A DNA stretch of 64,000 nucleotides from an uncultured bacterium (GCA_964385615.1 CAYLPP010000004.1:39494-103493), one strand, 5' to 3'. Shown: positions 2,399 through 30,937, counted from the first letter of the stretch. A program made the numbers and translations. Notes: generated by a model from the letters alone, not told the origin.

Positions 2399-4057
2399 AT
2401 GCTGACGCAAATCCAGGTGCAAAATTTTCTGCTGGCCGGCAAAGCATCCCTTCCTTTTTCTCCTGAACTCAATGTCCTAACCGGTGAGACCGGCGCGGGC
2501 AAATCCATTCTAATTGACGCTATCCGTTTTGTGCTGGGTGAGCGCGTGGAAGTCCGGCCTGCCGAAGGCCAGACGGCCTCCGTCGAAGCGGTTTTTGAAC
2601 TTCACGACAAAGCTCTTCGCGGGCATGAATGGCTGGAACCGTATAAAAGCGAAGACGACGAAGACGTTTTGATCTTGCGCAAGGAAGTGAATCTGGAAGG
2701 AAAATCCAAAGTCTGGATTAACGGCAGGGCAGCAACGACTGCAGCGCTCAAGCAAATTGGAAGCCTGTTGATCGATATTCACGGTCAGTACGACCACCAA
2801 CTTCTTTTGGATGCCGCCAGCCATCTTGGACTGGTTGACCGTTACGCCAAGACGGAAGATTTGAGAAAAGAATACGGGGAAGTTTACGCGGGCTATCACA
2901 CGCTGATTCAGCGCCGTGAAGAGCTCGCGAAGCTGGCCGAAGGCCGTGAGCGGGAACTGGACCTGCTGAAATACCAGGTTGAAGAAATCGAGAAAGCGGA
3001 TCTTTCAGAAAGCGAAGAAGAGGAGCTTAAAACAGAACAGGCTCGGTTTGGCAACTCTGAGAAGCTTTATGAGGCCTGCTCCCGCGCGTTGGAGTATCTT
3101 GAAGGCGAGGAGCGTTCCGTGTCGGAATTGTTGGCGAAAGCTCAGAGGGATGTCAGCCTCCTGGCTAAGCTCGATCCTTCAATTGAAAACACCAAAACCG
3201 AATTTGAGAATGTTCAGCTGGGATTCGAGGAAATGTCCCGTTCCCTGCGTGATTATCAAGAGTCGCTTTCATTTGATCCTGACCGGCTGTCTGAGATTGA
3301 GAAGCGTTTGGATTTGATTGATTTACTAAAGCGCAAGTACGGTTCAACGGTCGGGAAGGTTTTGGAATTTTTTGAAAATGCCCGCCGGCGTTTTGACGAG
3401 CTGAACAATAAAGAAGTCTACGAAAAGGAAATCGAGCAGAATTTGAAGAAGATTCTGCCGAAGCTTGAATCGCTCGCGGACCAGCTGACGGCCGGGCGCA
3501 AGAAGGCGGGAGTTCTTCTTAAGAAAACGATTGAAACGGAGCTGGGCGATCTCCAGATTCCTTACGCTAAATTTGAGTGCGGGATCACGCAGACGGACTT
3601 TTCGGCTTCCGGCCGTGACGGTGTGGAATTTTTGATCAGCTTGAACGCGGGGGAGCCGGTTATGCCGCTGGCAAAAATTATTTCCGGCGGGGAAGTTTCG
3701 CGTGTCATGCTGGCGCTTAAAAAGGCGCTGATCAAAGTTGATCCGGTCGGCACTCTTATTTTTGACGAAATTGACGCGAATATCGGCGGGCGCCTGGGGG
3801 AAGTGACCGGGCAGAAGCTGAAAGAAATCTCTCAGGCCCGCCAGGTCCTGCTGATTACCCACCTGCCTCAAATCGCTTCCTTTGCCGACCGGCATTTTAA
3901 GGTCGCCAAGAAGGTCAAAGACGGTAAAACGGTGACGGAATACCGGGTCATTGAAGGTGAGGAACGTGTCCGGGAGCTCGCTCAGATGATGTCCGGCAGG
4001 AAAGAATCCGAAATCTCCAAAAAACACGCCGAAGAAATGCTCAGCCGGGCGAAGTAG
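2399..4057 (+). CDS. recN: DNA repair protein RecN
   Basis: N-terminal SMC-like Walker A (LNVLTGETGAGKSILIDAI), a long coiled-coil middle and a C-terminal signature/Walker B region (LIFDEIDANIGG). The 552-aa size is typical of RecN. Confidence 0.9.
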   Translation: MLTQIQVQNFLLAGKASLPFSPELNVLTGETGAGKSILIDAIRFVLGERVEVRPAEGQTASVEAVFELHDKALRGHEWLEPYKSEDDEDVLILRKEVNLEGKSKVWINGRAATTAALKQIGSLLIDIHGQYDHQLLLDAASHLGLVDRYAKTEDLRKEYGEVYAGYHTLIQRREELAKLAEGRERELDLLKYQVEEIEKADLSESEEEELKTEQARFGNSEKLYEACSRALEYLEGEERSVSELLAKAQRDVSLLAKLDPSIENTKTEFENVQLGFEEMSRSLRDYQESLSFDPDRLSEIEKRLDLIDLLKRKYGSTVGKVLEFFENARRRFDELNNKEVYEKEIEQNLKKILPKLESLADQLTAGRKKAGVLLKKTIETELGDLQIPYAKFECGITQTDFSASGRDGVEFLISLNAGEPVMPLAKIISGGEVSRVMLALKKALIKVDPVGTLIFDEIDANIGGRLGEVTGQKLKEISQARQVLLITHLPQIASFADRHFKVAKKVKDGKTVTEYRVIEGEERVRELAQMMSGRKESEISKKHAEEMLSRAK

Positions 4058-13447: not shown

Positions 13448-16400
13448 ATGCCTCGATTTTTAAGAGCCGCCGCGTTTACGGTTCTTCCTCTATTTATATG
13501 GAGTCAGATTAGCTGGGCCAACCCGCTTTTGGCGCAGTCCGGGGGAGAAGTGCGCCTGGAGACTCCGCAGATATCTGATTTTTCAATTCCGGAAAATCTG
13601 GGGAAAATACAGTTTGAGCATCCAGGATCCGGTCCTGCCATCATTCATATTCAAACGGCCCACGGAAATTATGGCGCAGAACAAAAAATAAGAGACCTGC
13701 TGGAGTATTTAAAAAAACGTTACGGCTTCAAACTTCTCTTAGTCGAAGGAACCGCTTCAAAACTTGAACCGGAACGCTTGAGTTTTTTTGGAAAAGAGAA
13801 ATCGCTGAGCCTTGAGACGGCTGAAAAATTGACTCGTGAGGCCCTCATGAAAGGTTCTGAGCTTTTTTTGATGGAAGAACCCGGCATGGAAGCTTACGGC
13901 ATTGAAAACCGGGAAGCGTATGTATCCAATGGTGAAGCGTTTCGGGCGGTGCTTACGGAACAAAAGGCTTCCGGGAAATTCCTCAGCGGGATGGATGAGC
14001 AGATTAACCGGTTATTGGCGGTTTTTACAGAGTCGTCTTTCCGCGGTTTTTTGTCCGAAATGCAGCGTTTTGAATCCGGGCAGGGCTCGCTCGCGGACTG
14101 GCTGGGATATCTTAAAAGTGTTACCGCAAAAAATTCAGGTTTAAACCTTGAAGACCCGGCTAATCAATTTGACTGGCCGATGCTGACCCGCTTCTTTAAA
14201 CTACAGGAACTTGAAAAGAAATATCATTCCGGCTCTTTCCGCGAGGAGCTTCCCGGCTTCCTGGCGCGGCTCCAGGGAATAAGTCCGGAATTATCCTCTC
14301 AGGCTGAAAAGTTATTTTCCGCGGAAAATATGCGGGTCCATCTGCCGTATCCTCAGACCGGTGAATTATTTGAGGCTATCGCGCGTGTTTTGCCTGAAGA
14401 CTTCAGCATTGACGCTTACCCGAATGTGAAAATCCGTGCGGCTTTTTTGATCCTCCAAAGTGAATTAAGCGCGGAAATGCTCATGAGAGAAACCGAAAAG
14501 CTTTCGGAGCTTGCTTCGGACGGGCTTGCCCGGACGGAAGATCAGAGGAAGATCTATGGGTTTTACCGGGACTATCTTTTGCTGACGAAACTTTTCGCAC
14601 TGAATGTCACGCCTGAGGAATACGGCTTAATTTTAAAACGCCGTGAAGCGCTGAACCCGGAAGCTTTGGCCGAAGAATTCCGGAGGCTGAACTCGGGAGG
14701 GCGTGTCCGTGATTTGAAGTTCGAACATTTGGCTGAAATATGTTCGCTATTTGAAAAATCGCTCGAATTTTATAAAGGGGCTAAAGAGCGTGACGCTTTA
14801 ATGATTCAGGGGGTTGAGCGGAGGTTAAAGGAAACCGGAGCGGACAAGGCAGTGGTGATTACCGGCGGGTTTCACGCGGAACCGTTTCAGGATTATTTTT
14901 CTTCTCATGGGTTTAATTATGCGCGGATCATGCCGGAGATTACAGTTTTAGGCGGAAGGGATGCCTATGTGGAAGCCGTTCTGCAGAGCCAGCCCCGCCT
15001 TTTTTTCGCATCGACCCGTGAAGTGCCGTTTGCTTTCGCTTCACCGGAAGCTCTTTTGGAAATGGATAGAAATGCTTATCTGGGCTCGCTCGACCGGCTG
15101 GTACGGGCTGAGCTTGAAACGGCTGAAGATTCCGGGGACTTAAAAAATATTGAGAAAGCGAATTCAAACGGCCGTTTATTCGGGATTCAATATCAAGCCG
15201 GTTCAAAAAATGTGACTGTGAGCGCGGATGGAAAAAAATTCACGGTTCCGGTTTCACTTCGTCTGAATTTAAATCAGACTCGGCTCCTTCAGCGTTCCGA
15301 GTTGAGGGTGGACGTTGAGAAACTTAAAAACGCCGCGACTAAAGATGAAGCGCTGCGTGATCTTTTGAGCACTCTGGTAAGCGGAAGCGATGACAGGCAG
15401 CGTTTGTCGGCCTATCGGATCCTCACGGGAGTTTTTAGACGGGGCTCGCATAGAGATGAGATTTATCAGCATTTTACGGATAATGACCGCCGAAAAATCC
15501 GGGAGCTGATGTTCCACGCTTTTTTTGATCCCGATCACCGGATCCGTCAAGACCTGGGGTACAACCTTTACGGAAGCCTCAAAGATTTGGCTTCAAATGA
15601 TGATCTTATGGATTATCTTGCCAGGGCCGACGTTTATCAGCCGGGGCATTTAAATGAAGCCGAGGAATTTGTTTCCTGGGAAGTTTCCGGTCAGGAACCT
15701 CGTTTGAGCCCTGAGGAAACTTACAGCCTGGCCACGCAGAAATACATGGGTAAAGAAGCCGTTCTTTTCGCGATTTCCCGGCGCATCCATTTTTCTCACG
15801 GGAATCCTGACGAGCCGTACTTTCAGGGAAAAATACAGGAGGCCGACGGGGATTTCCGGGCCGCTTTGAAGTGGTTTAATCCGGAAATTCTTCAAGACTC
15901 AAAATTCCCGATCGCGCGAGCGATCCACGCGGCTCTTTTTGAATTTGCGCGTGAGGAAATGGTCGAGAATCATATTCCCGCTTCCTTTCTTATTCCGGAT
16001 CAAAAGACGCATTCGGTGAAAAACTGGAGGCTTGAAATGATCCGGTGCGTGATGGGAGATGCCTACACTCCGTGGATTTCGGCGATGGTGAGTCTCTATG
16101 CTTCGTTTATCGCAGAGCATCAAGCGGTTTTAGGGCGCGAAAGTATTGGACTCAGCTTTCAGGAAATCCGGAATCGCAAGACCGGTACGGAAAAACCGAT
16201 TTTGTATGGACCGGTTAAGGCAGTTCTGGCGGGCGATGAGAATAAATTGGCGTATATCGCCGCCCGGAGTCTAGAGCATAAGAGTTCCAGCGGGGCCGAC
16301 ATCCGGGAAGGGTTGACTGTTCTGGAAGGATACCGCGAACTGCTCGCGGAAAATGGTTTTGACTTCGGCGACGCGATTCGAGTTTCAATCCGAAAAATGG

Positions 16401-19400
16401 GCACGCTTTCTAATTTAATAAACCGGAATTTCCTGAGCGCTTCGCGAGATGAAATAATGGGACCTCTTTTGGAGATTCAAGAAGATTTGAGAAGACTTTT
16501 AGAGCTCCTGACGGCGGAGGAACCGAAAATTCGGGGACGCAGTGAGGAGCTGATGCGGGGCAGTGACAAAAGACAGGGTGCCCGGCTTCGGAAAAATTTC
16601 GAAGTTCTCACGGAGCAAACCCGGCTTCTTAAGGTGTATCTTGATGACCGGATTGCGTTCGCGAACAAAAGCTCTGAACCCGCGCGTACGGAAGTGGTGC
16701 CGGTTCTGGGCTTAATTCAGTCACGGCATGGTCAGAAACTGGTTATTGAGACTTCAGATCTTTCCGGGGTTTCCGCCGCTATCTCCCGCGTCCGGCTTTT
16801 CTCGATTCTCAATAATCTTGTTTCGAACGCAATTGAGGCCCAGGCGGAGTATTCTCAGGAACCGGTAACTGTTCGAGTTTCCTTGGAAAAAGAGGGGATT
16901 CTTTTTGAAGTTCAAGATCACGGACCTGGTTTTCCTTCGGATTATTTTCAGCCCGGTGAAAATGGAATCCGCTTATTTGATCTGGATGAGAGGAAAGGGC
17001 TGGGATTGGCTGAAGTCTGGGCGACTACGGCCCTGGCTTCAGGGTTTCTGGATGTCATTTCCAAAAGCGGGAAAGGCTCCACAATCGGCGTGACAATTCC
17101 TCGCTCAGAGGTACGCACTCAAACATCCGAAGCCCCAGTCATTCAGGATTTAATCATTCCCGGTGTTTCGGCTAAAACACTTGGGGTTTCACCTTTGAGC
17201 CGGATTAAGGTGTGGAGGCGTAAACCGGTGCGGGGGAATCCTTCTCTGGTCCGGAGTAATGACAATCTTTTAGTGGTTGAAGCAAAAATGGCGAATGAAC
17301 TGAAAGCTTTAGACCAGATATGGGCGCGTATCGTGCTGCGTCTTGATAATCCGTCCGCGGAAGAAGTGGAAGGGATGCGGGTTATGGCGGAGGTCATTGA
17401 ACGCGTAAAAGTCCGTATCCGGCTTGAACAGAGGAAAAGCCAGGAAATTTTACGTGAGATTATGGGGTTTGAAGGAAGCGGGGGTATTTCAAACCCTAAA
17501 GCCCGCGAAATCGTTGAGAAAGAACTTCTTCCTGACTTGGAAGATCGTGATGAATTTCTTTTTTTGAGCGCTGCCGAAGAAGTCAAAGGCGTTTCGCTTG
17601 AAAAAGCCCGCACCGCGATTACCCGGCGGTATCAGACCTTGGCCATGATTAAGCTCTACCAAATTATTTTAAATCTGCCTTATGGGTTCCACACAGAAAG
17701 CGATGACGTGATTCAAATGCAAAGAAACCTGGCCGCATCCCGTAAGGATGAACTGGAAGCTGAAGTCCCGAGGATTTTAAGCGCGATTGAAAAAGGATCC
17801 AGCCCTCGTGCCGCCGTTCAGGAATCCATCGAACGTATCAAGATCAGAATCCGGGATCTTGACCGGGAGATTAAAGAGACTCCCAGCAGTGAGGACCGGA
17901 CGTCACTGAAAACACTGCGGACAATCGCGGTGGAACAGATCGGGTACCTTGAAAAAGTGGGAACCTCTTACGATGTTTACGAATATCTTTACGAGCCTCG
18001 TGATCCGGAGGATGTTAGAAAAGAAAAAATTAGCAACGAAACAAAACGTCATGTTCAGCTTGCCCGGACGGCGGGCGATGAATTCCCGGAGCTTAAACGG
18101 CGGGGATGGTCTCTGAAGACGATTTGGTTTTATGTGTTTTCATCAACAGCCTGGGTTTTTGGCCTGCATTTTTGGGCTGTTCGGTTTTTCCGTAAGAATC
18201 CTGATTTTTTTCTGAATTGGTTTAACGCTTACATCCGCAACGAGATTTCCAAAGGCCGGCCGGTTCAATACGCCGCTGCCAAGTTTTTCTATGAAAACCG
18301 TGAGCTGGCCGCGAAAAGGGATTCGCTGTTCTGGCCTTTTTTGATGCGTTATTACGATCTGGCTGAATATGGTCACGCCCGCAGAGAATCTGGTGACCCG
18401 GTCATCGTTTTTGCCGAAGAGATTCACGACGAATCGGATTATAACCGCCTGATGGCGAGTTCCCGGGGTCACGGGAAAATCGCGGCGATTGTCGCGCCTA
18501 AAATGGAAGGGGAAATGAGAATCCCTCACTGGTTTATTTACGCTAAGAAGGAAAATATTCTCGTTCTGACTTCTCTGGATTTAAGAAAAGCGGGGATCCG
18601 GCTGGAGGATCTTGAAAAGGCTGATGGGGAAGAGTACGAGGGGATGGTGGACGCGAAACGGGGGGTTCTGGTGATTAATCCCTCCGTGGAAACTCAGCTG
18701 GAGTGGCAGAGTAAGGGAGAAACTTACGAGCTCCAGGATAAATATTATTGGAGCCGCGCGCGTAAGCAGACCATTTTTAATCTGACTCAGATTGAGTACC
18801 TCGCGGATGAAACCAGCCTTGAAGCCATTGAATGGATGGATGGTCAACCCTCCCTGCTTTACCGCTCCGGCGCGAGCGGGGTTGGTTTATTCCGTCTCGA
18901 AGAACTTTTGACCGCTCAGATGGACCGCGCGGGTATTGAGCGCGATCCGGCGCGTATTCAGGCCGCGGGGTCGGAAATTCTTGGTTATCCGGAATTTGAA
19001 AATGGCCAGGTTTTTACTATCAGACTTAATGATGTGAGCGTGGACAAAAGACCTCAATTCCTTGTGGATGGCGCTAAAGGTTTGCGCGGATGGGATATGG
19101 ATGAAATTATCCGGACGATGTCCGGAGCCCGTTTTTACTTGAACCGGGAAAAGTATCCGGAATTTTATGAGTTCGGGAAAATGCAGTTAAAAGCCATTTT
19201 CGCGGCTCATTTACGCAAAGGTATCCGGCGTTCAGGGATTAAGATTTTGATTTCTGATGTCCGGAATGCTTCAGAAATCGAGGCGCTTGAAGCTTTGCTT
19301 TTGGACGCGAAAAAAGAATTTATCGAAGAGGTTATCATCGGTACTTCTGCGGACCTTTCCGCGAGACTTCACTACGAGGATATGACCCAGCTTCTCTCGA

Positions 19401-22400
19401 CACTCAATCCGGATGAAATCAGCGATGCGATTGAAAGAATCCCGATTGGTTACATGTATGAAGATACCACGGCGATTGAAAATGAACGGGAAGCCATGAC
19501 CCGAAAAGTAAAGGAATTGTCAAAAACCCATTGGCGCGAAAGGTTTTTTGGAATTGGTTCCAATGATTTGAGCAAGTCGATTAATAAAGACCGCATGGGC
19601 GGAACGATGGCGCTGGATGAGTTGAGTCCTCTCCTCGTTCGGGATATCTGGCTCGCCGCCAAATCGGCTCAAAGAGAAAATATTCCGGTTAACCTGGAAG
19701 GGGAGTTGGGCGGGTCCAAACCGATGGCTTTTATTCTTCTGGCTTTGCAGGAACTCTCTGGAGGGGTGAGGATCACTCCAGTCGCCGCGACCGCGCAAAT
19801 TCCTGAATTGAAGGAGCTGGTTCGTGAGCATGTAGAGATAAGTGATTTTACGGAACCCTTGCGGGGGCAAAAATATTCCTTGGCAGAGCTTTTAGAGAAG
19901 ATCAGGGCTCCTTCTTTTGACTTGAGTCAGTTCCCGCTGGAGGACTGGAAATCAATTTTAAATCAGCTGGTTTCTACCGTAGAGGCCAGAATTTTCGGAA
20001 GCGATGATTTTAATCATTTTGCCCAGCAGATTTCCGACGGAGTTGCTCCGGAAGACGCGGAAATTCAAGCTCCGAAAGAAGCTGGATATTCCCGTGTGGA
20101 AAGTTTGGATGACGGTAGAATCCGGGAGGATAGATTATACGCGGTCGGCGCCTATGCTTTTCATACAACGCCCAACCAAAAAATTATGGTATGGCTCGCG
20201 GCGCATAGAAATGTGCGCGCGGTTTACGGTAAAGGGGACGCCGACCCAATAACCGAGCTTTATGAGTTTAATTTTATCAATATTCTCACGGTCAGAATTC
20301 TCCGCAAGCAGAAAATGTTTTTTAGGGTTGAAGGCCCTGAAGCCGAGGTGAGGGAATTTTATGAATTAATCGATACGATGGTGGAATATGACGGCATGAC
20401 CAGCACATTTTCGCCCGCGTCCGGACGCTCTGAATTAAGAGTGAAGGCCGCTCCTCAGCTTCCCTGGGATGAAATTGAAAAAGCCCAGCAGGATTTTCGC
20501 CTAAGGCTCGCGGATCCGTCTTTAAAAGACGCGGTATTGCGGGAAATTTGGAATAACGTTCTTAACGGTCCGGATGAGCTCACCAGGGCCGCGAGCTATT
20601 ACATTCTCGCGGACTTCTTTACCCAGCCTGATTTATTTGCGGGAATTATCGGGAACAAGGAAAGGCTTTTTACGGGGCGGGTGCTCTTAAGTTCTTATTT
20701 CGACCCTTCAAAAAATATTCGAATGCCTTTAGCCAGCAACAACGCCGCGGAAGAGGTTTATGAGGCGGTCCCGGATAAAGCTTTGCTTGAACTGCTGAAT
20801 CAGACGGACGCTTATCCTTTTTTGAGAGTTAACGGCAAAAATGAATTGGAAACGATTAGCACGGGGGCTGACCCCCGCCTGGGTCCCGGTGCCGTGTTCA
20901 GTCCGGAGCTTCGGGCTTATTTCGCGAAAGAAGCGATTTTGTTCACTCTGTACCGCCGTTTAGCTAACAGTTCCAGCGGAACCCCGAAATTCATTCAATC
21001 TGAAATCGCGGCTGCACAGGCGGACCTTGATAAAGCTCAAACGGCTCATGATCCTTCTATTCTGGAAAATTCAAAATCTCCGATTTTAAGGGCCGTAGGC
21101 GCCGTGCTTTTTGAGTACCTGCGGGACGAGTACGTTGAGAATGGGGTTAAAAATGGACAAAGACTGATCGGCGAAAGTAATTGGGGGATCGCGGGCCGTT
21201 GGCGGTTAAATATGATTCAGGAAATTCTTGGGCCCGCTAACAAGGCCGCCGTGAGAGAAATAGCATGGGCCTATCTGGAATTTATTCGCCAGCACGAAGC
21301 TCATCTGGGGCCCGAGACCAGAGGTTTTGGCAGGGGCCGTTTAAGCCGCTCTGAATTGAGAAATGAAGAGCAGGGTAAATCGTTTGTTGAATTTCAGCGA
21401 TTCAGCCGGCTCCCGCGGATTGAGTCCGCGAAACTGCCGTTAGGATATTATATTCAATCCTCCGGACTCAATATTGCCGTGGTGGATGATCACCATAAAG
21501 TGGTGCCGATTTGGCGGGAAGCCCACGCACGGGGAATTATTCCGAAAAATTCTTCGCTGGTGCATATTGACGCGCACACGGATGATCTCTTTGTGCCGGA
21601 CAGTCTTAACGGTCTTGTTCCGCTCCCCTCGGGGATTTTAGACGGGGCTGTTTTGGCGGACTATTTGGAGCAAGTTAAACGGGGGATCGCGAAATATTAC
21701 CGGATTGGAACTTTTATCGCGCCGGAAGTTTTGGCCGGTCTAATTGATCCTGAAAAATGGTTCTTTATTAACTCGTTATCCAATCTTAGAAGCGGTCCGG
21801 GAAGATTTCAATTTCAATGGCGCGGAATTGGAGGTATCGAGATGCTTACGGCGGCTTATCCTTTCGCGGGTACTTTGGATCGAATTTTTAAGAATAATCA
21901 GCCGGATATCGTGAATTTCGACATTGATGTAATGGGAACGGAGGTTCACGTTTTCCGGAGCCTCTTCCGCGTTAAACTCTTCCGGTTTTTGGGAGATCAA
22001 AAAGCAGATTCAGCCCAGGAAATCCTCGATTTGCTTTCAAGAGATCCGGAACTGAAAGCGAAAGGTTTTAATTTAGCCGGCGGAAGATATTCAGAAATCG
22101 TGGAAGCCTATTTCCGCTCTGACAAGAAAACGCCGGTTTTGATTGAGCTGGAAAAGAGTTTGGCAGTGGAAACCGTTTTAGCTCAATGGTTTCCGGTTTT
22201 GCTTCCGCTTCTCTCTAGAGCTAAGCTGATTACGATTGCGACCAGCCCGGGCTATATCGACCAGGATGACGCTTTAAGAATTGTTAACCGTCTTCTTCCC
22301 GAATTAGAACAGTATAAGATTAGCGGAGTTTTGACCGTGTTTCCAGAAAGGGAGAGAGAGGAAGGCGCGGGAGAACTTCCTTTTGAGCAAAGAGCCCGCG

Positions 22401-23467
22401 CCGCTTTTGAGTCGATTCCCGCGGAAATTCGCTCAAAAATTCCGGATATTACTTTCGCGCAGGCTGAAGAATACGCGCGGAACTCAATTTCCGCGGATGA
22501 ACTGAAAGCAAGAGCGGAGGAAGATTTTTCTGAGGCTTGGCATCTGCCGTACGCGATTGATTTTGCCGGCCGGATTTCGCCCCGGGCTCTGGTTTATGCA
22601 CGGCTTGGAGAATTGTTTTTTAATGGAGGTAAACCGGATTCGGACGCGGCGCTGGCGGTTTTGCTGGGTCTTTACAAACGTAACGATCTTCCGCCGGAGG
22701 AAAAGGAAAATTTGAACCGGTTTGCCGCTTCTTTGGACCGCGAGCGGGATTTACCAGGGATCGTCGCGAAAAGTGTCCGCGATTTTAATCGGGTTATGAA
22801 ACGCTCGGAAATCCGGGTTTCAGGCGCGCAAACTCTTTCCCCGCTGTTTTTTTCCCGTCTGCTGGATTTGAGGTTTGATTTTATTCCGTTTTCCTGGTTT
22901 GAGATTTACGGCAGACAGGAACTTGAAAATACGTTTAACCGCTTGAAGAAAAACAGCCGGGCTCCAGGGGGAGCTTGGGCGCCGTTTACGGCCGATCAGC
23001 GCAATCAGCTGGGCGGTGTTCTGGGGATCCGCGGAAAATCAGAACCGCCGAACGTTCTGATTGTTGACCGCGTGGCGGGTGTGGACCGCGGATTGCTTTC
23101 TGTGCTGGGGGAAGCGGGACAAGGGGTTCGGGTTATTTTAGCGGGAGCTTCTGACGCGGATCGGAAGATTGTGGAAGCTTTGAACCGAGAGTTAAAAGCG
23201 CGGAAAAGGCCGGAAGTGCTTCTAGCCCAAAACGCGGAAGAAGCCCGCCGGATAGCTGATAAAGCGGTGAATGGAAAAGCGGTTATGCGGGCTTATCTGG
23301 ACGCCTCTGAAATTGGAAAATGGGGTGAAGCTTTGAGGAAGCAAAAAGCGGAAGTCGTCCCCATGACTCCGCGGATGTACCAAAATCTGACGGAAGGTTT
23401 TGCCGCCGCGGCTGCCCGGTTGACCGCCTTTTTTGAGATCAGGAAGCGCATCAGCTCTGCAGCATAG
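13448..23467 (+). CDS. Giant multidomain protein (3339 aa), called giant 1 below. Its parts are a signal peptide, a TraB/GumN/Tiki-like N-domain, a GHKL ATPase domain, one hydrophobic helix, an Enzyme-I-like PEP-utilizing module, an arginase-fold-like signature, and a C-terminal domain shared with the next gene.
   Basis: A single uninterrupted 10-kb ORF preceded by a GGAG ribosome-binding site. Details are in the findings. Confidence 0.85.
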   Translation: MPRFLRAAAFTVLPLFIWSQISWANPLLAQSGGEVRLETPQISDFSIPENLGKIQFEHPGSGPAIIHIQTAHGNYGAEQKIRDLLEYLKKRYGFKLLLVEGTASKLEPERLSFFGKEKSLSLETAEKLTREALMKGSELFLMEEPGMEAYGIENREAYVSNGEAFRAVLTEQKASGKFLSGMDEQINRLLAVFTESSFRGFLSEMQRFESGQGSLADWLGYLKSVTAKNSGLNLEDPANQFDWPMLTRFFKLQELEKKYHSGSFREELPGFLARLQGISPELSSQAEKLFSAENMRVHLPYPQTGELFEAIARVLPEDFSIDAYPNVKIRAAFLILQSELSAEMLMRETEKLSELASDGLARTEDQRKIYGFYRDYLLLTKLFALNVTPEEYGLILKRREALNPEALAEEFRRLNSGGRVRDLKFEHLAEICSLFEKSLEFYKGAKERDALMIQGVERRLKETGADKAVVITGGFHAEPFQDYFSSHGFNYARIMPEITVLGGRDAYVEAVLQSQPRLFFASTREVPFAFASPEALLEMDRNAYLGSLDRLVRAELETAEDSGDLKNIEKANSNGRLFGIQYQAGSKNVTVSADGKKFTVPVSLRLNLNQTRLLQRSELRVDVEKLKNAATKDEALRDLLSTLVSGSDDRQRLSAYRILTGVFRRGSHRDEIYQHFTDNDRRKIRELMFHAFFDPDHRIRQDLGYNLYGSLKDLASNDDLMDYLARADVYQPGHLNEAEEFVSWEVSGQEPRLSPEETYSLATQKYMGKEAVLFAISRRIHFSHGNPDEPYFQGKIQEADGDFRAALKWFNPEILQDSKFPIARAIHAALFEFAREEMVENHIPASFLIPDQKTHSVKNWRLEMIRCVMGDAYTPWISAMVSLYASFIAEHQAVLGRESIGLSFQEIRNRKTGTEKPILYGPVKAVLAGDENKLAYIAARSLEHKSSSGADIREGLTVLEGYRELLAENGFDFGDAIRVSIRKMGTLSNLINRNFLSASRDEIMGPLLEIQEDLRRLLELLTAEEPKIRGRSEELMRGSDKRQGARLRKNFEVLTEQTRLLKVYLDDRIAFANKSSEPARTEVVPVLGLIQSRHGQKLVIETSDLSGVSAAISRVRLFSILNNLVSNAIEAQAEYSQEPVTVRVSLEKEGILFEVQDHGPGFPSDYFQPGENGIRLFDLDERKGLGLAEVWATTALASGFLDVISKSGKGSTIGVTIPRSEVRTQTSEAPVIQDLIIPGVSAKTLGVSPLSRIKVWRRKPVRGNPSLVRSNDNLLVVEAKMANELKALDQIWARIVLRLDNPSAEEVEGMRVMAEVIERVKVRIRLEQRKSQEILREIMGFEGSGGISNPKAREIVEKELLPDLEDRDEFLFLSAAEEVKGVSLEKARTAITRRYQTLAMIKLYQIILNLPYGFHTESDDVIQMQRNLAASRKDELEAEVPRILSAIEKGSSPRAAVQESIERIKIRIRDLDREIKETPSSEDRTSLKTLRTIAVEQIGYLEKVGTSYDVYEYLYEPRDPEDVRKEKISNETKRHVQLARTAGDEFPELKRRGWSLKTIWFYVFSSTAWVFGLHFWAVRFFRKNPDFFLNWFNAYIRNEISKGRPVQYAAAKFFYENRELAAKRDSLFWPFLMRYYDLAEYGHARRESGDPVIVFAEEIHDESDYNRLMASSRGHGKIAAIVAPKMEGEMRIPHWFIYAKKENILVLTSLDLRKAGIRLEDLEKADGEEYEGMVDAKRGVLVINPSVETQLEWQSKGETYELQDKYYWSRARKQTIFNLTQIEYLADETSLEAIEWMDGQPSLLYRSGASGVGLFRLEELLTAQMDRAGIERDPARIQAAGSEILGYPEFENGQVFTIRLNDVSVDKRPQFLVDGAKGLRGWDMDEIIRTMSGARFYLNREKYPEFYEFGKMQLKAIFAAHLRKGIRRSGIKILISDVRNASEIEALEALLLDAKKEFIEEVIIGTSADLSARLHYEDMTQLLSTLNPDEISDAIERIPIGYMYEDTTAIENEREAMTRKVKELSKTHWRERFFGIGSNDLSKSINKDRMGGTMALDELSPLLVRDIWLAAKSAQRENIPVNLEGELGGSKPMAFILLALQELSGGVRITPVAATAQIPELKELVREHVEISDFTEPLRGQKYSLAELLEKIRAPSFDLSQFPLEDWKSILNQLVSTVEARIFGSDDFNHFAQQISDGVAPEDAEIQAPKEAGYSRVESLDDGRIREDRLYAVGAYAFHTTPNQKIMVWLAAHRNVRAVYGKGDADPITELYEFNFINILTVRILRKQKMFFRVEGPEAEVREFYELIDTMVEYDGMTSTFSPASGRSELRVKAAPQLPWDEIEKAQQDFRLRLADPSLKDAVLREIWNNVLNGPDELTRAASYYILADFFTQPDLFAGIIGNKERLFTGRVLLSSYFDPSKNIRMPLASNNAAEEVYEAVPDKALLELLNQTDAYPFLRVNGKNELETISTGADPRLGPGAVFSPELRAYFAKEAILFTLYRRLANSSSGTPKFIQSEIAAAQADLDKAQTAHDPSILENSKSPILRAVGAVLFEYLRDEYVENGVKNGQRLIGESNWGIAGRWRLNMIQEILGPANKAAVREIAWAYLEFIRQHEAHLGPETRGFGRGRLSRSELRNEEQGKSFVEFQRFSRLPRIESAKLPLGYYIQSSGLNIAVVDDHHKVVPIWREAHARGIIPKNSSLVHIDAHTDDLFVPDSLNGLVPLPSGILDGAVLADYLEQVKRGIAKYYRIGTFIAPEVLAGLIDPEKWFFINSLSNLRSGPGRFQFQWRGIGGIEMLTAAYPFAGTLDRIFKNNQPDIVNFDIDVMGTEVHVFRSLFRVKLFRFLGDQKADSAQEILDLLSRDPELKAKGFNLAGGRYSEIVEAYFRSDKKTPVLIELEKSLAVETVLAQWFPVLLPLLSRAKLITIATSPGYIDQDDALRIVNRLLPELEQYKISGVLTVFPEREREEGAGELPFEQRARAAFESIPAEIRSKIPDITFAQAEEYARNSISADELKARAEEDFSEAWHLPYAIDFAGRISPRALVYARLGELFFNGGKPDSDAALAVLLGLYKRNDLPPEEKENLNRFAASLDRERDLPGIVAKSVRDFNRVMKRSEIRVSGAQTLSPLFFSRLLDLRFDFIPFSWFEIYGRQELENTFNRLKKNSRAPGGAWAPFTADQRNQLGGVLGIRGKSEPPNVLIVDRVAGVDRGLLSVLGEAGQGVRVILAGASDADRKIVEALNRELKARKRPEVLLAQNAEEARRIADKAVNGKAVMRAYLDASEIGKWGEALRKQKAEVVPMTPRMYQNLTEGFAAAAARLTAFFEIRKRISSAA

Positions 23468-23692: not shown

Positions 23693-26600
23693 ATGAAAAA
23701 ACGGGACGGCAGACTCGTAAGGAAAACAAGCGCGGCCATTACGGCCGCGTGTTTTATCGCCCAACAGATTTTTGCACCCGCTGTTTCTTCTGCCTCCGAA
23801 GTTCAGGAAAGCAGTCTCCGAGTTCCCTCAATTGAAATTCCCGCTGAAATAGGTTCCCTTGAAACCTCAGGGATTTTAGAAGATCAAAAGCCCATGATTA
23901 TTCAGGTTCAGGACGCTCACGGAAATTATGACGCTCAGAAAAATATTCAAAAAATTCTCCAGCATCTTACCGCCTATGAAGGCGTCGACCTTGTTTTGCT
24001 CGAAGGCGGAAAAGGCCCGCTTCATCCCGAAATCCTGAATTTTTTACCAAGACGTCCTGATTTGAATCTGGAAATCGCCGACCGTCTGGCTCAGCAATCT
24101 GAACTGAGCGGAGCGGAGATTTTTCTTCTAGACCGGTATTTGGCGGGGAAGACTCTTGCCGCATTTGGGATTGAAAACGCTCCGGCTTACCGGGAGAACC
24201 GTGAAGCTTTTCAAAAAGTTCTGCGCGCCCGGGAGCAAAGCGGAAATTTCTTAAAAGATATGGAAATGCAGATTGACCGCCTGACGGCGCCTCATGTGAA
24301 TCCTCAGCTCAAAAATTTTCTGCGCAGTTATGAAGCTTATGAATCACGGCAGATGGATTTGACGGTATGGCTCCGCCAGCTTGAGGAGCTTTCACGCAAG
24401 CACTTGGGCTTGGACCTGGATTTAGCCGGAAGTCAGAAAGACTGGCCGATGCTCACCCGGTATTCCCGCCTGCGTAAACTCGAACCCAAACTTGATAAAA
24501 CGCGTGTTGAAAACGACAAAACGGCGATGCTTCAAAAACTTAGGTCGCTCAATGTTTCTAAAGCGGTGATTGAGGCTTTTGACAATGCCGTGAATATGGC
24601 CCCGGATAACGGTGTTCAGGCTTCTCAAATTGTGAAAGCTGTTGAGAGTGTGATGGAAGCGGTTCCTTCCGATTTTTCTTTTGAACCCTATGGGTTCCTG
24701 AAAGCTTGGATTCAGTTTGAAGTTTTTCAGCGTGAGCTTAATGGAGAAGCTTTATTCGCGGAGGTCAGCAAACTGGAAGATCTTCTCTCAAATCAGCTGG
24801 CCAGAACCGAAACCGAGAAAAAACTTCTGGCCCTCTTTAAAGATTACCGTGCTCTAAACAAACTTTTCGCTCTCGAACTTACCCGGGAAGATTATCAGAA
24901 TATCCAGCGTTCTGAGGACACGATGACGCCTTCGGCCATCGCCGGACGGTTTTCAGCGGTCAATAAAAACAAGCAGGTCCGCGACACGCAGTTTATTCAT
25001 TTAAAAGAACTCGACGCTCTTTATTCGCTCGCGCTTAATTTTTACCGCGGAGCGCTTGACCGCGATCATTTGATGGCGGACAACATTTTGGAAACTATGC
25101 AGGCGCAGGGGAAGCGCCGGGCGGTTGTTGTGACCGGCGGGTTTCATTCAGAAGGAATGCAGGAATACTTTCAATCCAAGGGTTTTTCTTACGCGCGGAT
25201 CAGCCCGCGAATTCAGGAGCTGGGTGACAACAAAGCTTATATCCGGGCAATGCTGGATGAAGATGTTGAAATTAAAAAATCGCAGGTCGCGGATATCCTG
25301 GTGGAACAATTCGGGGAAGTTCAGCTGGAGCTGGGGAGCGCCAGCCACTTAACCCGCAAGGACGCAGTCATTTACCGGGTCATGCGGGATGTCGTTGAAC
25401 ACGCGGGCGCGCGCTCAGAAATGCGCGGACGGCGTGATTGGATTTACGGTATCGGGCTTGTGACCGCGATCGGTTTAGCGGCTTATGCCGCGTTTAGACC
25501 CTTGCCTGTCAATCCGCCGGCTCAGCAGGATGTGCCTGCAAAAGTCGCGGAGCTAGAACCTAAACCGGTTCAGCAGGAGAAGAAGGTTGAAGAAAAAAAG
25601 CCCGCTCCGATTCCTGAAGTGGTGCCGCTGCCTCAGCCTGAAAAGAAAGCTCCAATTGTTAAAATAGATGAGCCTGTGATTGATAAGGCCGAAACGCTCC
25701 GTGTTTGGGGTAAGCGGGAAGTGCCTAAAATTTCTCCTGAAAAACTCGAGGCTCTTGTCACTTCAGATTTAAACGCGGAACAGATCCGGTATTTGCTGAA
25801 ATACGATAAGCGGTCGAAACAGCTTGAGTCCGCGGGAGCGGGAAAAAACACGGTTTGGAGTATTGAAGCCGGTGTCCGTCATATTACAGAAGCTAAGCTG
25901 AATAAGGCGGAGAAGGCGGAGTTTGAAGCGACGAAAGGCGCGATTGAAGAGTTTTTGAAAGAACTGAAAGAAGACGGCGCTTTTAAAGAAGGGCAGACCG
26001 CTCTGGATCTTTATTACTTTTTCTTCCGCCCGCTTTTTGTGGTGCAGGACCGTCATGGAGCTGCCGCCGCGAAGTGGGTGGTAGAAATGCAGATTGCTTA
26101 CTTTACGGTTAAGAATAATTTTGAGATCAACCTGAAAGGGTTAACTGAAAAATCTTTGAGCGCGACTTATATCCGCACCATTGAGGACTATCTGAATGCT
26201 GATGAGTGGAAAGCTAACGGCGGGGAACGGTTAAAAATCGCGTTCGCGCTTTCTATTTTATACGCGCAGATGGATAATTATAAACAGGTGATTTGGCGTA
26301 ATCACGACTGGTCAAAATTCAAAAGGCTTGAGCTTCCGGCTGAACTCGAACTCTACCGCTTTTACGGCGAAAAAGGGCTCGGCAAAGATGCGTTGGAACG
26401 CATGGAGCTCGAACTTAAAGCTGAAATCCGCGGCCCCAGACCCCTGGGAAAAAATAATGCCTGGAACAACCGCCCGAATCTCCCCCAACGTTATGTCGGC
26501 CTTTACGAAGAAGTTTATTCCAGGACCTGGTATTACTCGACCATGCACCGTGAGCGTTTTTACCGGCCCGGAGATTTCCGCCTCGGAGCGACTCCGAATC

Positions 26601-29600
26601 CCTGGTTCCCGACGCATACGCTGATGTACTTCCATATTTCCAGAATGGATTGGGTCCAGAAACGCGCTTCGGATGTAACGGGTGTGAGCCGTGAACCCTA
26701 TTTCATCGCGCCGGTGGCGATCCAGCTGCCCAGCGACAACATCCGCAAAAACAAATTTCCGATTATTATTCCAGCACGCCCGGACGCTGTCTGGGGCGCG
26801 ATGGGGCTCGGCGATAGAAGCAGTCAGCGGGCTGAAGATATTTTCAGTTTTCATCTTTCCAATCCTTCCGCTTGGAAGCCGGGTGAAAAAGACGAGCTTC
26901 AATATCTCGATCAGGTTTTTGACGCGGCAAAAATGAAAGATTTCAGTAAGCAGTTCCGCGCATTATGGGACAGCGGAAAAGTCCGGAAATTGTATGTCCA
27001 GGATTACGGAGAATTTCTGGTGGATGATTTCCTCAAGAAGTTCATTGACCAGAATTATTTTGACGTTTTCAACGGTCAGCTGAAAGGAAACGAAAAGTAT
27101 TTTGATGATCTCGCGAAGGCTTTGAGGACGCAATATCCGAAACTTCCTTACGATTATCAGGTTTATCTTCAAATTCCTCTCCTTCGCTATGAGGCCGGGA
27201 AAAATCTCAAGCTGGATGATGATTATATGGCGTATCTCCGCGCGGATCTTTACCAGTCCGCGGCTCAGCTTGCCCGGGATATCTATGTCAACAACACGCA
27301 GGCGCTGATCGGCTCAGCTTACCGGCAGGGAATTTATGACACTCCGGGCGTCTTAGCGTATGTTGAACGGCACATTATTTTCCGGCCCATGGTTGAAAAG
27401 CTTCTAGGCCGTGAGCTTGTTCTCTCAGACCCTCACTCGAACGATTCGGGGCGTCTGTCCGCGTTCGTTAATGAAATTTACAAAAGAGATATTGATCCGG
27501 ACATCTGGTATCTGATTACCCGCTATACGCTTGAAGAATCCACGCAAAAAAGTGCGCTGGAATTTTACAACGCCGTGATGGGTACTGAATTAACTTCTTT
27601 GGGGCTTAACGATAAAGACGAAAAACTCGCGGCGGTCCGCTTCGGGGTTCTGCTTTCGTACGCGGCCGAGGACATTCTTCACCCGGGCCGGATGGAGAAA
27701 ATAAAAACGTTCTTAAAAACACCGGCGATGCGCCGTAAAGCTGTCGAGTTTGCCATCCGCACGCGCGGGGCATTTAGAAGTGAGCCTGATCTTACGGGAG
27801 ATGACTTAAAACGCGCCGCTGACGCGCTTGAAAAAGATCTTTTGGAGCAGAAAAACTCAGAAGCCCTTGTGCGCTACACCGGCTACTTGATCGGGCAGGC
27901 CCGGACCGCTGTTTTGAAAGACGTTCTGGATAGCGATGAAAATTTTAAGGAGTGGGTGGAATTGACGGACGCTTTGATTAAGGTTCTTGATCCGCGAGCG
28001 CCTAAAAAACGTTCCGAAGCGCGGGCGGTTTCCCGGGCGCCGGAATCTTTCGAGGCTGATTTTATCGAAGCTTTTTTAAATTCAAAGTTAATGGATTTAA
28101 CGGATCGTGAGAGGGTTGTTTTTACGAGACGGTTCGCCGAAAAGAAAAAGGTGAATGAAATCGCGGCGGAATTGAAAATTGCCGGGCCTGCTGTTTCCAA
28201 GGTTATCGCGAGTCTCCAGCTGAAAACGGATTATTTCTCGGTGAATATTTACGGCAAGCCTTTGCTCGATCCCCGCAAGCTCAATGAGCTCCCCGTGGAA
28301 AGGGTCGGATACCTTGATCAAAAAACCCTGACAGCCTGGAAAGGCAGGGGGATTAATAATTTGAAGGACTTGGTGACACGAATGCCTGAACTTCTGGATG
28401 ATCCCCAGAAAACAGGACCGGCGCTTAAAATAGTTTCCCAATACCTGATCGCTTTGGGAGTGAATCTTAATCTGGGATTGATTATGGATCTTACCCCTGA
28501 AGCTTCGTCCGCGCTGGAAGCTATGACTCTTCAGGAATATTTGGTTCAGGAAAACGCATACCAACTGCTTTTGAGAGTTCAAGCGGTTCAAGACCCTCTG
28601 TTTTTACCGCAAAAGAAACGTGAGGAAAGACCGGGTAAATTAAGACAGCTTGGAGTGAATACGGTCGGCGACCTTCTTAAGGTCGGGCTTGATGCGTTCA
28701 GACAGGCGGGATTTACCTCTTCCGACATTAAGTTAATCGCGGCGGTTTTAAAAGTTCAGCCGGCAGGAACAAGCGCCCGCTCAGAACTCCGCTCGGAAGA
28801 AACGAAACCGGAAGCCCAAGGCAAAGCTGTACCGGTACGGTCCGAAGTTCTTCAAAGAGTCCGGAGTCTCAAGACTGATGAGGTGGAAAAGTTAACGACG
28901 GAAGATCTCGCTGGAATCGTTCGTGAACTTGTGGAGAGCGGAATTTTAAAGGATTACGAAGGGCTTCAAGTGCTGTTAACGTTGTTTTCTGCGGGCCCGG
29001 CGACTGGGAAAGGCGCTTTGATGAGCGCGACTTTTCTGGCTGAAGAAGAAGGAGAAATCGCCCCCTATCAAGATCTGGTGGATAAATTCGTTCTTTTTCA
29101 CACCCGCGCTCCGCGAGTGGATAAAAAAGGAAGATCGGAAAAGAACGGAAGAGCTTACTATTTCGTGAAAACGGAAGATTTAAAACAGTTGGCGGCGGAA
29201 CTTGGCGAAGATGTTCTGGTCGTTCGGGAAATCAACCGGGAAGTTCAGGCGCTCGCGCGTAAAAATTTCACACTGCCTCATGTCGAAGTCGGGGAGGTCA
29301 CCGGTTCTGGACAGCTTCAGCCGGGCGATCTTGTCGTGAGCTTCGATGCTTCCCAGGGGCTTTTAGTCATTCAGCGCGGGGAATTCACGATTCCTCTGAC
29401 GGGGGTGACCATTCCTGAAGGCTCTGCGGGGTATTTTTTAAATGGGGATAAAATTGAAAAAGTTGAAGGGCCGGCGGTCTATGTAAGCCGGCAGATTAAA
29501 GGGATTGAAGAAACGTTTAAGAGCGGAAAGCTGACCATTCTTGAAGGCGGTTATGAATGGTTCAAATGGGTTAAAGAGCATTATCCGGAAGTTCTGACCA

Positions 29601-30937
29601 TGTTTTTATCGCCTTTCCGCGAACCCGAATTCGCCGTGCGTGCCCAGAATTTGGCATGGATCCGGGAAAACTTTTCAACCCCTGAAGATATTTACGCGGC
29701 TTTTGAAGCGATGACGGATTTGATTAAAGCCAATAAAGGTGAAATTTCCATTCCTTCGTCAACGGGCTATCAGGCGGCTATAAAAGCCAAGGTTGATTCC
29801 AAACCTGCGATTCCGCCTGTGCTGGCCGAAAACACCGCGGTCATTCTTAATGACGCTGATTTTATCGCTGAACTCAATCAGCTTCGGAGCCGTTTTGGAA
29901 AGCCTTCGCTGAAGCCGGAAGATTACGATTTGGCCCGGGCCCTGGCCTTTGAAGTTCAGAGGAGGCTTTTCGGCCGTGATGGGGTGAAGGCGTTTCGTGT
30001 CGGCGGGGAAAGAAGCAATCCTTACGACCGGATTTTAGAAGGAACCTTGCAGATTCTGGACCGGAATTCCGATTACGGCGCTGAAAACGTTCTTCCGAAT
30101 CCTTTTGGGTACACGGAAGACGAGAAAAGTAAAAACATTAATGAGTTGAGCGATCAGTTCGCCCGGCGTGTTTTCCTGCACGTTGTGGAAGGTCTTCGCC
30201 GGTCAGAGATCAGAAATAATCCGGCGGATATTACCGCGGTATCCCTGCTTGAAGGCAAACCGGGGACGCCTTCAGAATTATTAGTTCAGGCTCCGGTTGG
30301 GATTTCACCGCGGAAGACTTTGCGCGCGGTCCAAATCGTTACTGAGGTTTTTGATGGAATTGCGCCTACGGCTGGAATTCTCGGCATTTCGGCGGAAGTT
30401 CTGATTGACCGGATATCTGCCGGTGAAAGCGGAAAGGTTTCACCGTGGGTGCCGTTTACCGATGAACAAAGAAAACAGCTGAGCGGAGTGCTGGGAATTC
30501 GCGGGCATGGAACTCAAGCAAATGTTCTGATTACTGAACCCGTCGCTGGTATTGATAATGGCCTGCTCGCTTTACTCGGTGAAGCTGGAGAAGGCGTTCT
30601 GGTTATTTTGGTGGGCGCGGATGATCAGCAGAAGCGTATCGTCGCTGAAATGAATAAAGAATTAAAAGCCGTGAAGCGTCAAGAAATCCGGCTGGCTAAA
30701 GATACGGTCGAAGCCCGGAAGATCGCGGATCAATACACTAAGGGAAAAACCGTGATGCGGGCGTATGTCGACGTTTCAATGGTAGGCCGGTACGGTACGG
30801 CGCTGCGTAAACAGCTTGCGGATGTTATCCCGATGACTCCCAGAATGTACGAGAATATGAAGCAGGGGTTTGCCGCGGCGGCAGCCCGCCTGACGGCTTT
30901 CTTCGAAATCAGCAAACGGATCAAATCCGCGGCATAA
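23693..30937 (+). CDS. Giant multidomain protein (2414 aa), called giant 2 below, a paralog of giant 1. Its parts are a signal peptide, a TraB/GumN/Tiki-like N-domain, a TM helix with a Pro/Lys-rich linker, a sigma70-r4-like HTH, two RNAP alpha-CTD-like HhH domains, and the shared C-terminal domain.
   Basis: A single 7.2-kb ORF preceded by an AGAGG ribosome-binding site. Its N- and C-terminal regions align clearly to those of the upstream giant. Confidence 0.85.
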   Translation: MKKRDGRLVRKTSAAITAACFIAQQIFAPAVSSASEVQESSLRVPSIEIPAEIGSLETSGILEDQKPMIIQVQDAHGNYDAQKNIQKILQHLTAYEGVDLVLLEGGKGPLHPEILNFLPRRPDLNLEIADRLAQQSELSGAEIFLLDRYLAGKTLAAFGIENAPAYRENREAFQKVLRAREQSGNFLKDMEMQIDRLTAPHVNPQLKNFLRSYEAYESRQMDLTVWLRQLEELSRKHLGLDLDLAGSQKDWPMLTRYSRLRKLEPKLDKTRVENDKTAMLQKLRSLNVSKAVIEAFDNAVNMAPDNGVQASQIVKAVESVMEAVPSDFSFEPYGFLKAWIQFEVFQRELNGEALFAEVSKLEDLLSNQLARTETEKKLLALFKDYRALNKLFALELTREDYQNIQRSEDTMTPSAIAGRFSAVNKNKQVRDTQFIHLKELDALYSLALNFYRGALDRDHLMADNILETMQAQGKRRAVVVTGGFHSEGMQEYFQSKGFSYARISPRIQELGDNKAYIRAMLDEDVEIKKSQVADILVEQFGEVQLELGSASHLTRKDAVIYRVMRDVVEHAGARSEMRGRRDWIYGIGLVTAIGLAAYAAFRPLPVNPPAQQDVPAKVAELEPKPVQQEKKVEEKKPAPIPEVVPLPQPEKKAPIVKIDEPVIDKAETLRVWGKREVPKISPEKLEALVTSDLNAEQIRYLLKYDKRSKQLESAGAGKNTVWSIEAGVRHITEAKLNKAEKAEFEATKGAIEEFLKELKEDGAFKEGQTALDLYYFFFRPLFVVQDRHGAAAAKWVVEMQIAYFTVKNNFEINLKGLTEKSLSATYIRTIEDYLNADEWKANGGERLKIAFALSILYAQMDNYKQVIWRNHDWSKFKRLELPAELELYRFYGEKGLGKDALERMELELKAEIRGPRPLGKNNAWNNRPNLPQRYVGLYEEVYSRTWYYSTMHRERFYRPGDFRLGATPNPWFPTHTLMYFHISRMDWVQKRASDVTGVSREPYFIAPVAIQLPSDNIRKNKFPIIIPARPDAVWGAMGLGDRSSQRAEDIFSFHLSNPSAWKPGEKDELQYLDQVFDAAKMKDFSKQFRALWDSGKVRKLYVQDYGEFLVDDFLKKFIDQNYFDVFNGQLKGNEKYFDDLAKALRTQYPKLPYDYQVYLQIPLLRYEAGKNLKLDDDYMAYLRADLYQSAAQLARDIYVNNTQALIGSAYRQGIYDTPGVLAYVERHIIFRPMVEKLLGRELVLSDPHSNDSGRLSAFVNEIYKRDIDPDIWYLITRYTLEESTQKSALEFYNAVMGTELTSLGLNDKDEKLAAVRFGVLLSYAAEDILHPGRMEKIKTFLKTPAMRRKAVEFAIRTRGAFRSEPDLTGDDLKRAADALEKDLLEQKNSEALVRYTGYLIGQARTAVLKDVLDSDENFKEWVELTDALIKVLDPRAPKKRSEARAVSRAPESFEADFIEAFLNSKLMDLTDRERVVFTRRFAEKKKVNEIAAELKIAGPAVSKVIASLQLKTDYFSVNIYGKPLLDPRKLNELPVERVGYLDQKTLTAWKGRGINNLKDLVTRMPELLDDPQKTGPALKIVSQYLIALGVNLNLGLIMDLTPEASSALEAMTLQEYLVQENAYQLLLRVQAVQDPLFLPQKKREERPGKLRQLGVNTVGDLLKVGLDAFRQAGFTSSDIKLIAAVLKVQPAGTSARSELRSEETKPEAQGKAVPVRSEVLQRVRSLKTDEVEKLTTEDLAGIVRELVESGILKDYEGLQVLLTLFSAGPATGKGALMSATFLAEEEGEIAPYQDLVDKFVLFHTRAPRVDKKGRSEKNGRAYYFVKTEDLKQLAAELGEDVLVVREINREVQALARKNFTLPHVEVGEVTGSGQLQPGDLVVSFDASQGLLVIQRGEFTIPLTGVTIPEGSAGYFLNGDKIEKVEGPAVYVSRQIKGIEETFKSGKLTILEGGYEWFKWVKEHYPEVLTMFLSPFREPEFAVRAQNLAWIRENFSTPEDIYAAFEAMTDLIKANKGEISIPSSTGYQAAIKAKVDSKPAIPPVLAENTAVILNDADFIAELNQLRSRFGKPSLKPEDYDLARALAFEVQRRLFGRDGVKAFRVGGERSNPYDRILEGTLQILDRNSDYGAENVLPNPFGYTEDEKSKNINELSDQFARRVFLHVVEGLRRSEIRNNPADITAVSLLEGKPGTPSELLVQAPVGISPRKTLRAVQIVTEVFDGIAPTAGILGISAEVLIDRISAGESGKVSPWVPFTDEQRKQLSGVLGIRGHGTQANVLITEPVAGIDNGLLALLGEAGEGVLVILVGADDQQKRIVAEMNKELKAVKRQEIRLAKDTVEARKIADQYTKGKTVMRAYVDVSMVGRYGTALRKQLADVIPMTPRMYENMKQGFAAAAARLTAFFEISKRIKSAA

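Follow-up and report, generated by a model that had tools for sequence, protein, structure and literature searches.

UPF0489 (PF12640) is a recognised clade within the arginase-deacetylase family (PMC5454378), and those of its bacterial members that have been characterised are peptide arginases dependent on Mn (PMC10028609, PMC12703449, PMC12707348). PF12640 enzymes have so far been known solely as small stand-alone maturases that place ornithine in ribosomal peptide natural products, and the eukaryotic members are orphans. In OspR, the crystallographic MnA/MnB ligands are His12, Asp39, His41, Asp43, Asp165 and Asp167, while Ser264 replaces Glu277 of arginase, Glu11 is proposed to stabilise the guanidinium, and Ser170-Ser234 is an extra domain that forms the dimer and the substrate cleft (PMC10028609). 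The signature of the peptide arginases from pathways for peptides that are synthesised ribosomally and then modified post-translationally (RiPPs) comprises EEH(N/H)EAF, DxHxD and LDIDLDYFSC (PMC10028609, PMC12703449).

Here, we describe an arginase-like module within a giant open reading frame (ORF) in 64,000 nucleotides (nt) of DNA from an uncultured bacterium (GCA_964385615.1 CAYLPP010000004.1:39494-103493; the window). The host protein, giant ORF 1 (g1), was found in the ORF list and its translation; it is encoded at 13448..23467 on the plus strand and has 3339 amino acids (aa). It almost certainly contains an arginase-fold UPF0489 domain with an intact set of binuclear-site ligands. Because a standard Pfam scan identifies the domain, the fold assignment as such is not new knowledge; what is new is a rare, distinct subfamily with a family-specific extension, residence only in giant proteins and a non-RiPP context. 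The literature that we searched, which included work on giant proteins, does not mention arginase or UPF0489 domains in giants.

Motifs, conservation and fold of the arginase-like module

The original prediction had recognised a signature resembling the arginase-family motifs GGDHS/DAHxD/SxDxDxxDP at 21450-21960 of the window. All three motif strings lie in frame within this interval: NIAVVDDHHKVVPIW (aa 2675-2689, nt 21470-21514), LVHIDAHTDDLF (aa 2704-2715, nt 21557-21592) and IVNFDIDVMGTE (aa 2821-2832, nt 21908-21943). Its limits were too narrow, as both the catalytic core and the whole module extend beyond them. The features of the module and its flanks, all on the plus strand, are as follows.

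21347..21361, plus strand: RSELR (aa 2634-2638), putative upstream delimiter of the module
21362..22801, plus strand: whole conserved arginase-like module (aa 2639-3118); BLASTP to other giants recovers one unit, g1 aa ~2620-3111, and eight giant-embedded modules are aligned in A3
~21431..22327, plus strand: arginase-fold (UPF0489/PF12640) catalytic core (aa 2662-2960)
21488..21493, plus strand: D2681-H2682 of motif 1 (VVDDHHK); H2682 is the predicted MnA ligand, equivalent to OspR His12, and D2681 is at the OspR Glu11 position
21569..21583, plus strand: D2708-A-H2710-T-D2712 (DxHxD), predicted ligands equivalent to OspR D39/H41/D43
21920..21928, plus strand: D2825-I-D2827, predicted ligands equivalent to OspR D165/D167
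21932..22222, plus strand: insertion after motif 3 (aa 2829-2925), predicted to be helical with a predicted local distance difference test (pLDDT) score of about 67-90
22238..22249, plus strand: ATSP (aa 2931-2934), a fourth conserved motif, where the last core beta strand ends
22328..22801, plus strand: C-terminal helical extension (aa 2961-3118), conserved in 8/8 giant-embedded modules (A3)
22802..22816, plus strand: RSEIR (aa 3119-3123), putative downstream delimiter of the module

Relative to the arginase family, the order of the motifs in g1 is right and their spacing roughly so, with 26 residues from H2682 to D2708 and 113 from D2712 to D2825. The equivalent distances are 23 and 104 residues in rat arginase I. 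In OspR, they are 27 and 122 (PMC10028609). Given the length of g1 (3339 aa) and motifs that are short and made of common residues, one might suspect a chance resemblance, but g1 has one instance of the composite pattern DH-x(18-30)-DxHxD-x(95-130)-DxD, which is present in 0 of 3000 residue shuffles. On this basis we reject a chance match, the likelihood of which we consider negligible.

Searched exhaustively with HMMER, 1.84 billion representatives yielded only 60 proteins at E<=1e-3 and only seven at E<=1e-10, namely g1's own entry, an identical singleton, and six others. With a word-indexed search, no matches were obtained with the domain and one with the eight-module alignment. In an alignment of 55 homologous sequences with 23-37% identity (A1), the sole invariant columns (55/55) are H2682, D2708, H2710, D2712, D2825 and D2827, which in register are the six Mn ligands of OspR; the residue mapping allows for a +1 offset between the PDB chain index and the published numbering (PMC10028609). 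Near-invariant positions are D2680, W2689, H2706, A-T-S-P 2931-2934 and A2942, and within ATSP the counts are 54/54 for both S and P, 51 for T and 50 for A. The module could instead be a non-catalytic pseudo-enzyme that binds metal or acts as a scaffold, kept for structure or for binding arginine-rich partners. The residues by which g1 departs from the consensus, N2823 (D in 48/55) and M2829 (F in 42/55), would fit such a role, as would the many g1 modules without an assigned function. Against this stands the fact that exactly the six catalytic-metal ligands are invariant across sequences this divergent, with D2680, H2706 and ATSP nearly so. Such strict invariance points to selection on the active site, and we regard a pseudo-enzyme as quite improbable.

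Family assignments point in the same direction. In a Pfam-A scan of g1, three families exceed their cut-offs: HATPase_c (aa 1115-1219, 46.2 bits versus 26.4), PEP-utilizers_C (aa 1806-1961, 42.5 bits versus 22.8; a second such stretch lies at ~aa 2031-2100) and UPF0489 (PF12640; aa 2676-2773, 35.7 bits versus a gathering score of 27). The proposal that the giant joins an arginase-like unit with GHKL and EI-like modules is supported. PF12640 scores 40.1 bits on the isolated domain and is matched by all 55 members of A1, with the match to g1 spanning profile positions 1-81 of 167 only. The isolated domain scores 11.5 bits with PF00491 (Arginase; E=0.2), below the gathering score of 22 bits, and just 2 of the 55 homologues show a weak PF00491 match, leading us to reject membership in the conventional arginase/agmatinase family. 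The module could also be a deacetylase or amidohydrolase of the histone deacetylase (HDAC)/acetylpolyamine amidohydrolase (APAH) type, which would use one Zn2+ to cleave an amide such as acetyl-lysine or acetyl-polyamine. The Pfam scan of the isolated domain shows no HDAC family, PF00850 included, and the closest structural matches are not deacetylases; we rejected an HDAC-type deacetylase and consider this chemistry very improbable.

Searches against the PDB agree with the PF12640 assignment. With the single sequence, OspR (8brp_A) ranks first, albeit weakly (E=0.075), in an alignment that pairs VVDDHHKVVPIW with IMEEHNEAFFIW and HIDAHTD with HVDEHSD. The A1 profile recovers OspR with E=2e-29 and the putative agmatinase 3lhl_A with E=2.2e-5, keeping the three motifs in register: the DxHxD of g1 aligns to HVDEHSD of OspR and HFDAHTD of 3lhl, and D2825/D2827 pair with Asp residues two and three in LDIDIDYF of OspR. 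The original prediction had named the eukaryotic UPF0489 family as a distant member of the arginase fold; the recognised position of this clade (PMC5454378), the PF12640 match above the gathering score and the profile matches to OspR and 3lhl agree with that view. The fourth motif, ATSP, probably corresponds to OspR Ser264. We infer this equivalence, since the A1 profile alignment to OspR ends at position 143/193, short of the ATSP region, and phmmer of the ATSP-containing C-terminal segment against the PDB gave no match.

An AlphaFold2 model of the domain, built with A1, has a mean pLDDT of 81.8 and a predicted template modelling (pTM) score of 0.81. Every motif is placed at the C-terminal end of a beta strand, with pLDDT > 90 in the motif blocks: in model numbering, strand 13-18 leads to H21, 41-46 to D47/H49/D51, 160-164 to D164/D166 and 266-270 to T271-S272-P273. 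The top Foldseek matches are the agmatinase 4dz4 and OspR, both with a probability of 1.00, and the model has the three-layer alpha/beta/alpha arginase fold that had been anticipated. The original prediction thus withstood both refuting tests set for it, one on matches to the arginase fold and one on the predicted structure. Fold, family and ligand conservation are thus established at the level of a predicted structure and alignments. Two elements are added to this core. D2827 and T2932 stand 104 residues apart in g1; the equivalent separation is 52 residues in most other giants and ~31 when the homologue is stand-alone. The C-terminal helical extension of ~160 aa, with the signature ...NPRxLVYxKL...LLGLYKN..LPP.EK..., is lacking in stand-alone homologues.

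Proposed activity and substrate

The reading that we favour, with a probability of roughly 55%, is that the g1 module is a binuclear (probably Mn2+) ureohydrolase-type enzyme, likeliest acting on peptide or protein arginine, and that it forms one cassette of a modular giant. We infer the metal identity, chemistry, substrate class and any release at RSExR. H2682 and D2712 would hold one metal and H2710 and D2827 the other, with D2708 and D2825 as bridges. By analogy to OspR, BipC and FlmR/OhkR, a metal-bridged hydroxide would attack the guanidinium carbon with release of urea. As these are the only characterised PF12640 enzymes, the likeliest reaction is conversion of peptidyl-arginine to peptidyl-ornithine. 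The helical insertion after DxD and the C-terminal extension would probably supply substrate recognition or oligomerisation, and the module may work while still tethered or once freed at the RSE[LI]R sites on its flanks.

Three observations favour a peptide or protein substrate: every PF12640 enzyme that has been characterised works on peptides (PMC10028609, PMC12703449, PMC12707348), the g1 insertion is located where OspR forms its peptide-binding cleft, and sister giants bear the protein-modifying modules Pkinase, Fic, GHKL and REC. Alternatively, the domain could be a small-molecule ureohydrolase (of the agmatinase, guanidine hydrolase or guanidino-acid hydrolase kind, for example) with a free metabolite, not peptidyl-arginine, as its substrate. 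The agmatinases among the structural matches would suit such an enzyme, and the low PF00491 score would not; we hold it to be unlikely.

Several results weigh against a ureohydrolase acting on peptidyl-arginine. The Foldseek matches are weak in E value (~3e-3) and in global template modelling score (0.34-0.46, < 0.5), which we attribute to the large insertions in the domain. The residue before the invariant H2682, at the position of OspR Glu11, is variable across the 55 sequences (N32/D11/H7/E4/R1, with His in most giant-embedded copies), and because this residue is not conserved, the substrate of the wider family may not be a guanidinium. NCBIfam NF052474, the FlmR/OhkR RiPP peptide arginases, gives g1 only 26.7 bits versus a cut-off of 350 bits (E=3.6e-6). 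No RiPP precursor or maturase context is present among the genes neighbouring g1, and the domain lies within an ORF of 3339 aa. Finally, the N-terminus of g1 is signal-peptide-like and, if a true signal peptide, would give the protein an exported location; export would be hard to reconcile with sister modules that depend on ATP or phosphoenolpyruvate (PEP), unless g1 enters another cell.

Judged by sequence, then, the g1 domain is homologous to the peptide arginases of NF052474, yet lies outside the curated family. It has the DxHxD element (DAHTD) of the RiPP signature, but its motif 1 is DDHHKVV and its motif 3 is NFDIDVMGTE, such that g1 retains the predicted ligands of the RiPP arginases and loses the flanking signature. 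Given the NF052474 score, the RiPP-free neighbourhood and the differing motif flanks, the domain does not strictly qualify as a RiPP peptide arginase.

Host giants, neighbouring genes and RSExR pentapeptides

After g1's own entry, the best matches in the HMMER search (P0002-P0007) have 3817, 7108, 4733, 1613, 955 and 4854 aa, four of them > 3800 aa. P0005 (1613 aa) and P0006 (955 aa) look incomplete: the former ends soon after motif 3 and the latter lacks a start residue. The remaining homologues are stand-alone proteins of ~170-400 aa. Genome and metagenome scans with a six-sequence alignment (A2) located the arginase-like module within stop-free stretches of 2272 to >6900 aa, in metagenome-assembled genomes (MAGs) that bear the labels Omnitrophota and Planctomycetia, as well as in an unclassified bacterium, a microbial-mat metagenome and several Joint Genome Institute (JGI) metagenome contigs. 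The arginase-like subfamily with the C-terminal extension is confined to giant modular proteins. Related giants carry Pkinase (Ser/Thr protein kinase), Kdo/APH-like kinase, Fic, HATPase_c, Response_reg (receiver) and HEAT modules, from which we conclude that the family links enzymes for protein modification and signalling in an order that varies; arginase-like and signalling modules occur together at L010:7256-18841, L007:3-6818 and L001:650-11998.

At five loci of stand-alone homologues, the gene neighbours include no RiPP genes and share no consistent functional context. A gene for a CorA divalent-metal transporter lies beside or near the UPF0489 homologue at two of these loci, one in a Patescibacteria MAG and the other in a Gammaproteobacteria MAG (L008:10064-11176 and L009:11458-12546), which may be coincidence or related to metal supply.

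The genes around g1 encode a NagZ-like glycoside hydrolase family 3 (GH3) protein, an amino-acid permease, a second giant (g2), BipA and a 2-oxoacid:ferredoxin oxidoreductase; those other than g2 are housekeeping genes. Further features of the two giants are listed below.

15293-15307 (aa 616), 17102-17116 (aa 1219) and 20426-20440 (aa 2327): other RSE[LVI]R copies in g1
15320-16162: copy 1 of a duplicated ~280-aa helical module of g1 (aa 625-905), upstream of the GHKL module
20504-21328: copy 2 of this module (aa 2353-2627), directly upstream of the arginase-like module and forming a separate block delimited by RSELR
22925-23464 and 30395-30934: C-terminal ~180-aa module shared by g1 (aa 3160-3339) and g2 (aa 2235-2414)
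23693-30937: g2 (2414 aa), without an arginase-like module; pentapeptide copies at aa 574, 1440, 1696 and 2170

The two copies of the helical module in g1 are 31% identical (E=2e-38) and are possibly adaptors. The C-terminal module common to the adjacent giants is 59% identical and ends ...AAAARLTAFFEI.KRI.SAA; a small-residue tail (SAA, KAA, RSA, TSA) also closes related giants. Neither Pfam nor NCBIfam matched the duplicated module of g1, the C-terminal module shared by the two giants or the C-terminal extension. An N-terminal module is likewise common to g1 and g2 (36.5% identical) and is present in P0002, P0003, P0005, P0007 and L001 by BLASTP. In g2, a transmembrane-like segment (aa 583-601) directly follows the first RSEMR, a Pro/Lys/Glu-rich linker is also present, and aa 1467-1498 weakly match the Sigma70_r4 helix-turn-helix (E=0.011, under the cut-off).

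The pentapeptide copies of g1 fall between recognisable modules, and R-S-E-[LVIMA]-R is found likewise in g2, L001, L007, L010/P0002, P0003 and P0005. The pattern [RK]SE[LVIMA]R is observed 5 times in g1 (0.07 expected from shuffles), 4 times in g2 (0.03), 11 times in L001 (0.15), 5 times in L007 (0.05) and 8 times in P0002 (0.06). The strict R-S-E-[LVIMA]-R form is enriched 35- to 130-fold over shuffles. In L007, from an Omnitrophota MAG, RSEMR stands just ahead of the arginase-like module and RSEVR at the downstream equivalent, and in L010 the pentapeptide lies within tandem low-complexity linkers. No flanking conservation is seen across 38 instances. The pentapeptide is absent from the module-bearing Planctomycetia proteins and so is not universal among such giants. 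It has the look of a delimiter between modules or of a site for processing or modification; a previous study of giant Omnitrophota proteins pointed to a lack of information on cleavage points (bioRxiv 10.1101/2023.11.21.568195).

A bolder version, which we consider decidedly unlikely, would make the module a protein-directed, deguanidinating (Arg to Orn) effector within an undescribed class of giant multi-enzymes, the cassettes of which would be freed at RSE[LVA]R and act on the proteins of another cell. The cassettes would comprise the GHKL ATPase, PEP-utilising enzyme, Ser/Thr kinase, Fic and arginase-like units, and the shared N-terminal module, of an EreA/ChaN/Tiki-fold hydrolase type, might cleave at RSE[LVA]R. 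This class would be represented in Omnitrophota- and Planctomycetia-labelled MAGs and in unclassified metagenome contigs.

Comparison with known systems

The PF12640 catalytic core, with an intact predicted active site, recurs as a cassette in giants of uncultured bacteria beside kinase, Fic, GHKL and PEP-utilising cassettes. This recurrence suggests that arginine deguanidination, or a related hydrolysis, occurs outside natural-product biosynthesis and is possibly protein-modifying. The ~480-aa module is a concrete clonable construct, and the putative RSE[LVA]R delimiters offer a practical guide for dividing giants into experimentally tractable modules.

In context only, g1 resembles the MARTX-type multi-effector modular toxins, an analogy rather than membership; unlike in MARTX, neither RTX repeats nor a cysteine protease domain turned up in g1. 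Eukaryotic UPF0489, exemplified by human C5orf22, belongs to the same Pfam family as the g1 domain. A role as a peptide arginase has been hypothesised for C5orf22 (PMC10028609); C5orf22 is eukaryotic, whereas the g1 domain is bacterial and lies inside a giant multi-enzyme. With the conventional ureohydrolases (arginase, agmatinase, formiminoglutamase and guanidine hydrolase; PF00491), g1 shares the three-layer alpha/beta/alpha fold as well as the ligand set of the binuclear site, the motif order and the approximate spacing (GGDHS/DAHxD/SxDxD). The remaining comparison is with the peptide arginases of RiPP pathways, namely OspR (PDB 8BRP), BipC/PbsE and FlmR/OhkR (PF12640, NF052474). The six ligands and an acidic residue at the Glu11 position (D2681 in g1) are common to g1 and OspR, the conserved Ser of the g1 ATSP motif fits the OspR replacement of Glu277 by Ser264, and the helical insertion of g1 (aa 2829-2925) sits straight after DxD, at the position of the Ser170-Ser234 domain of OspR.
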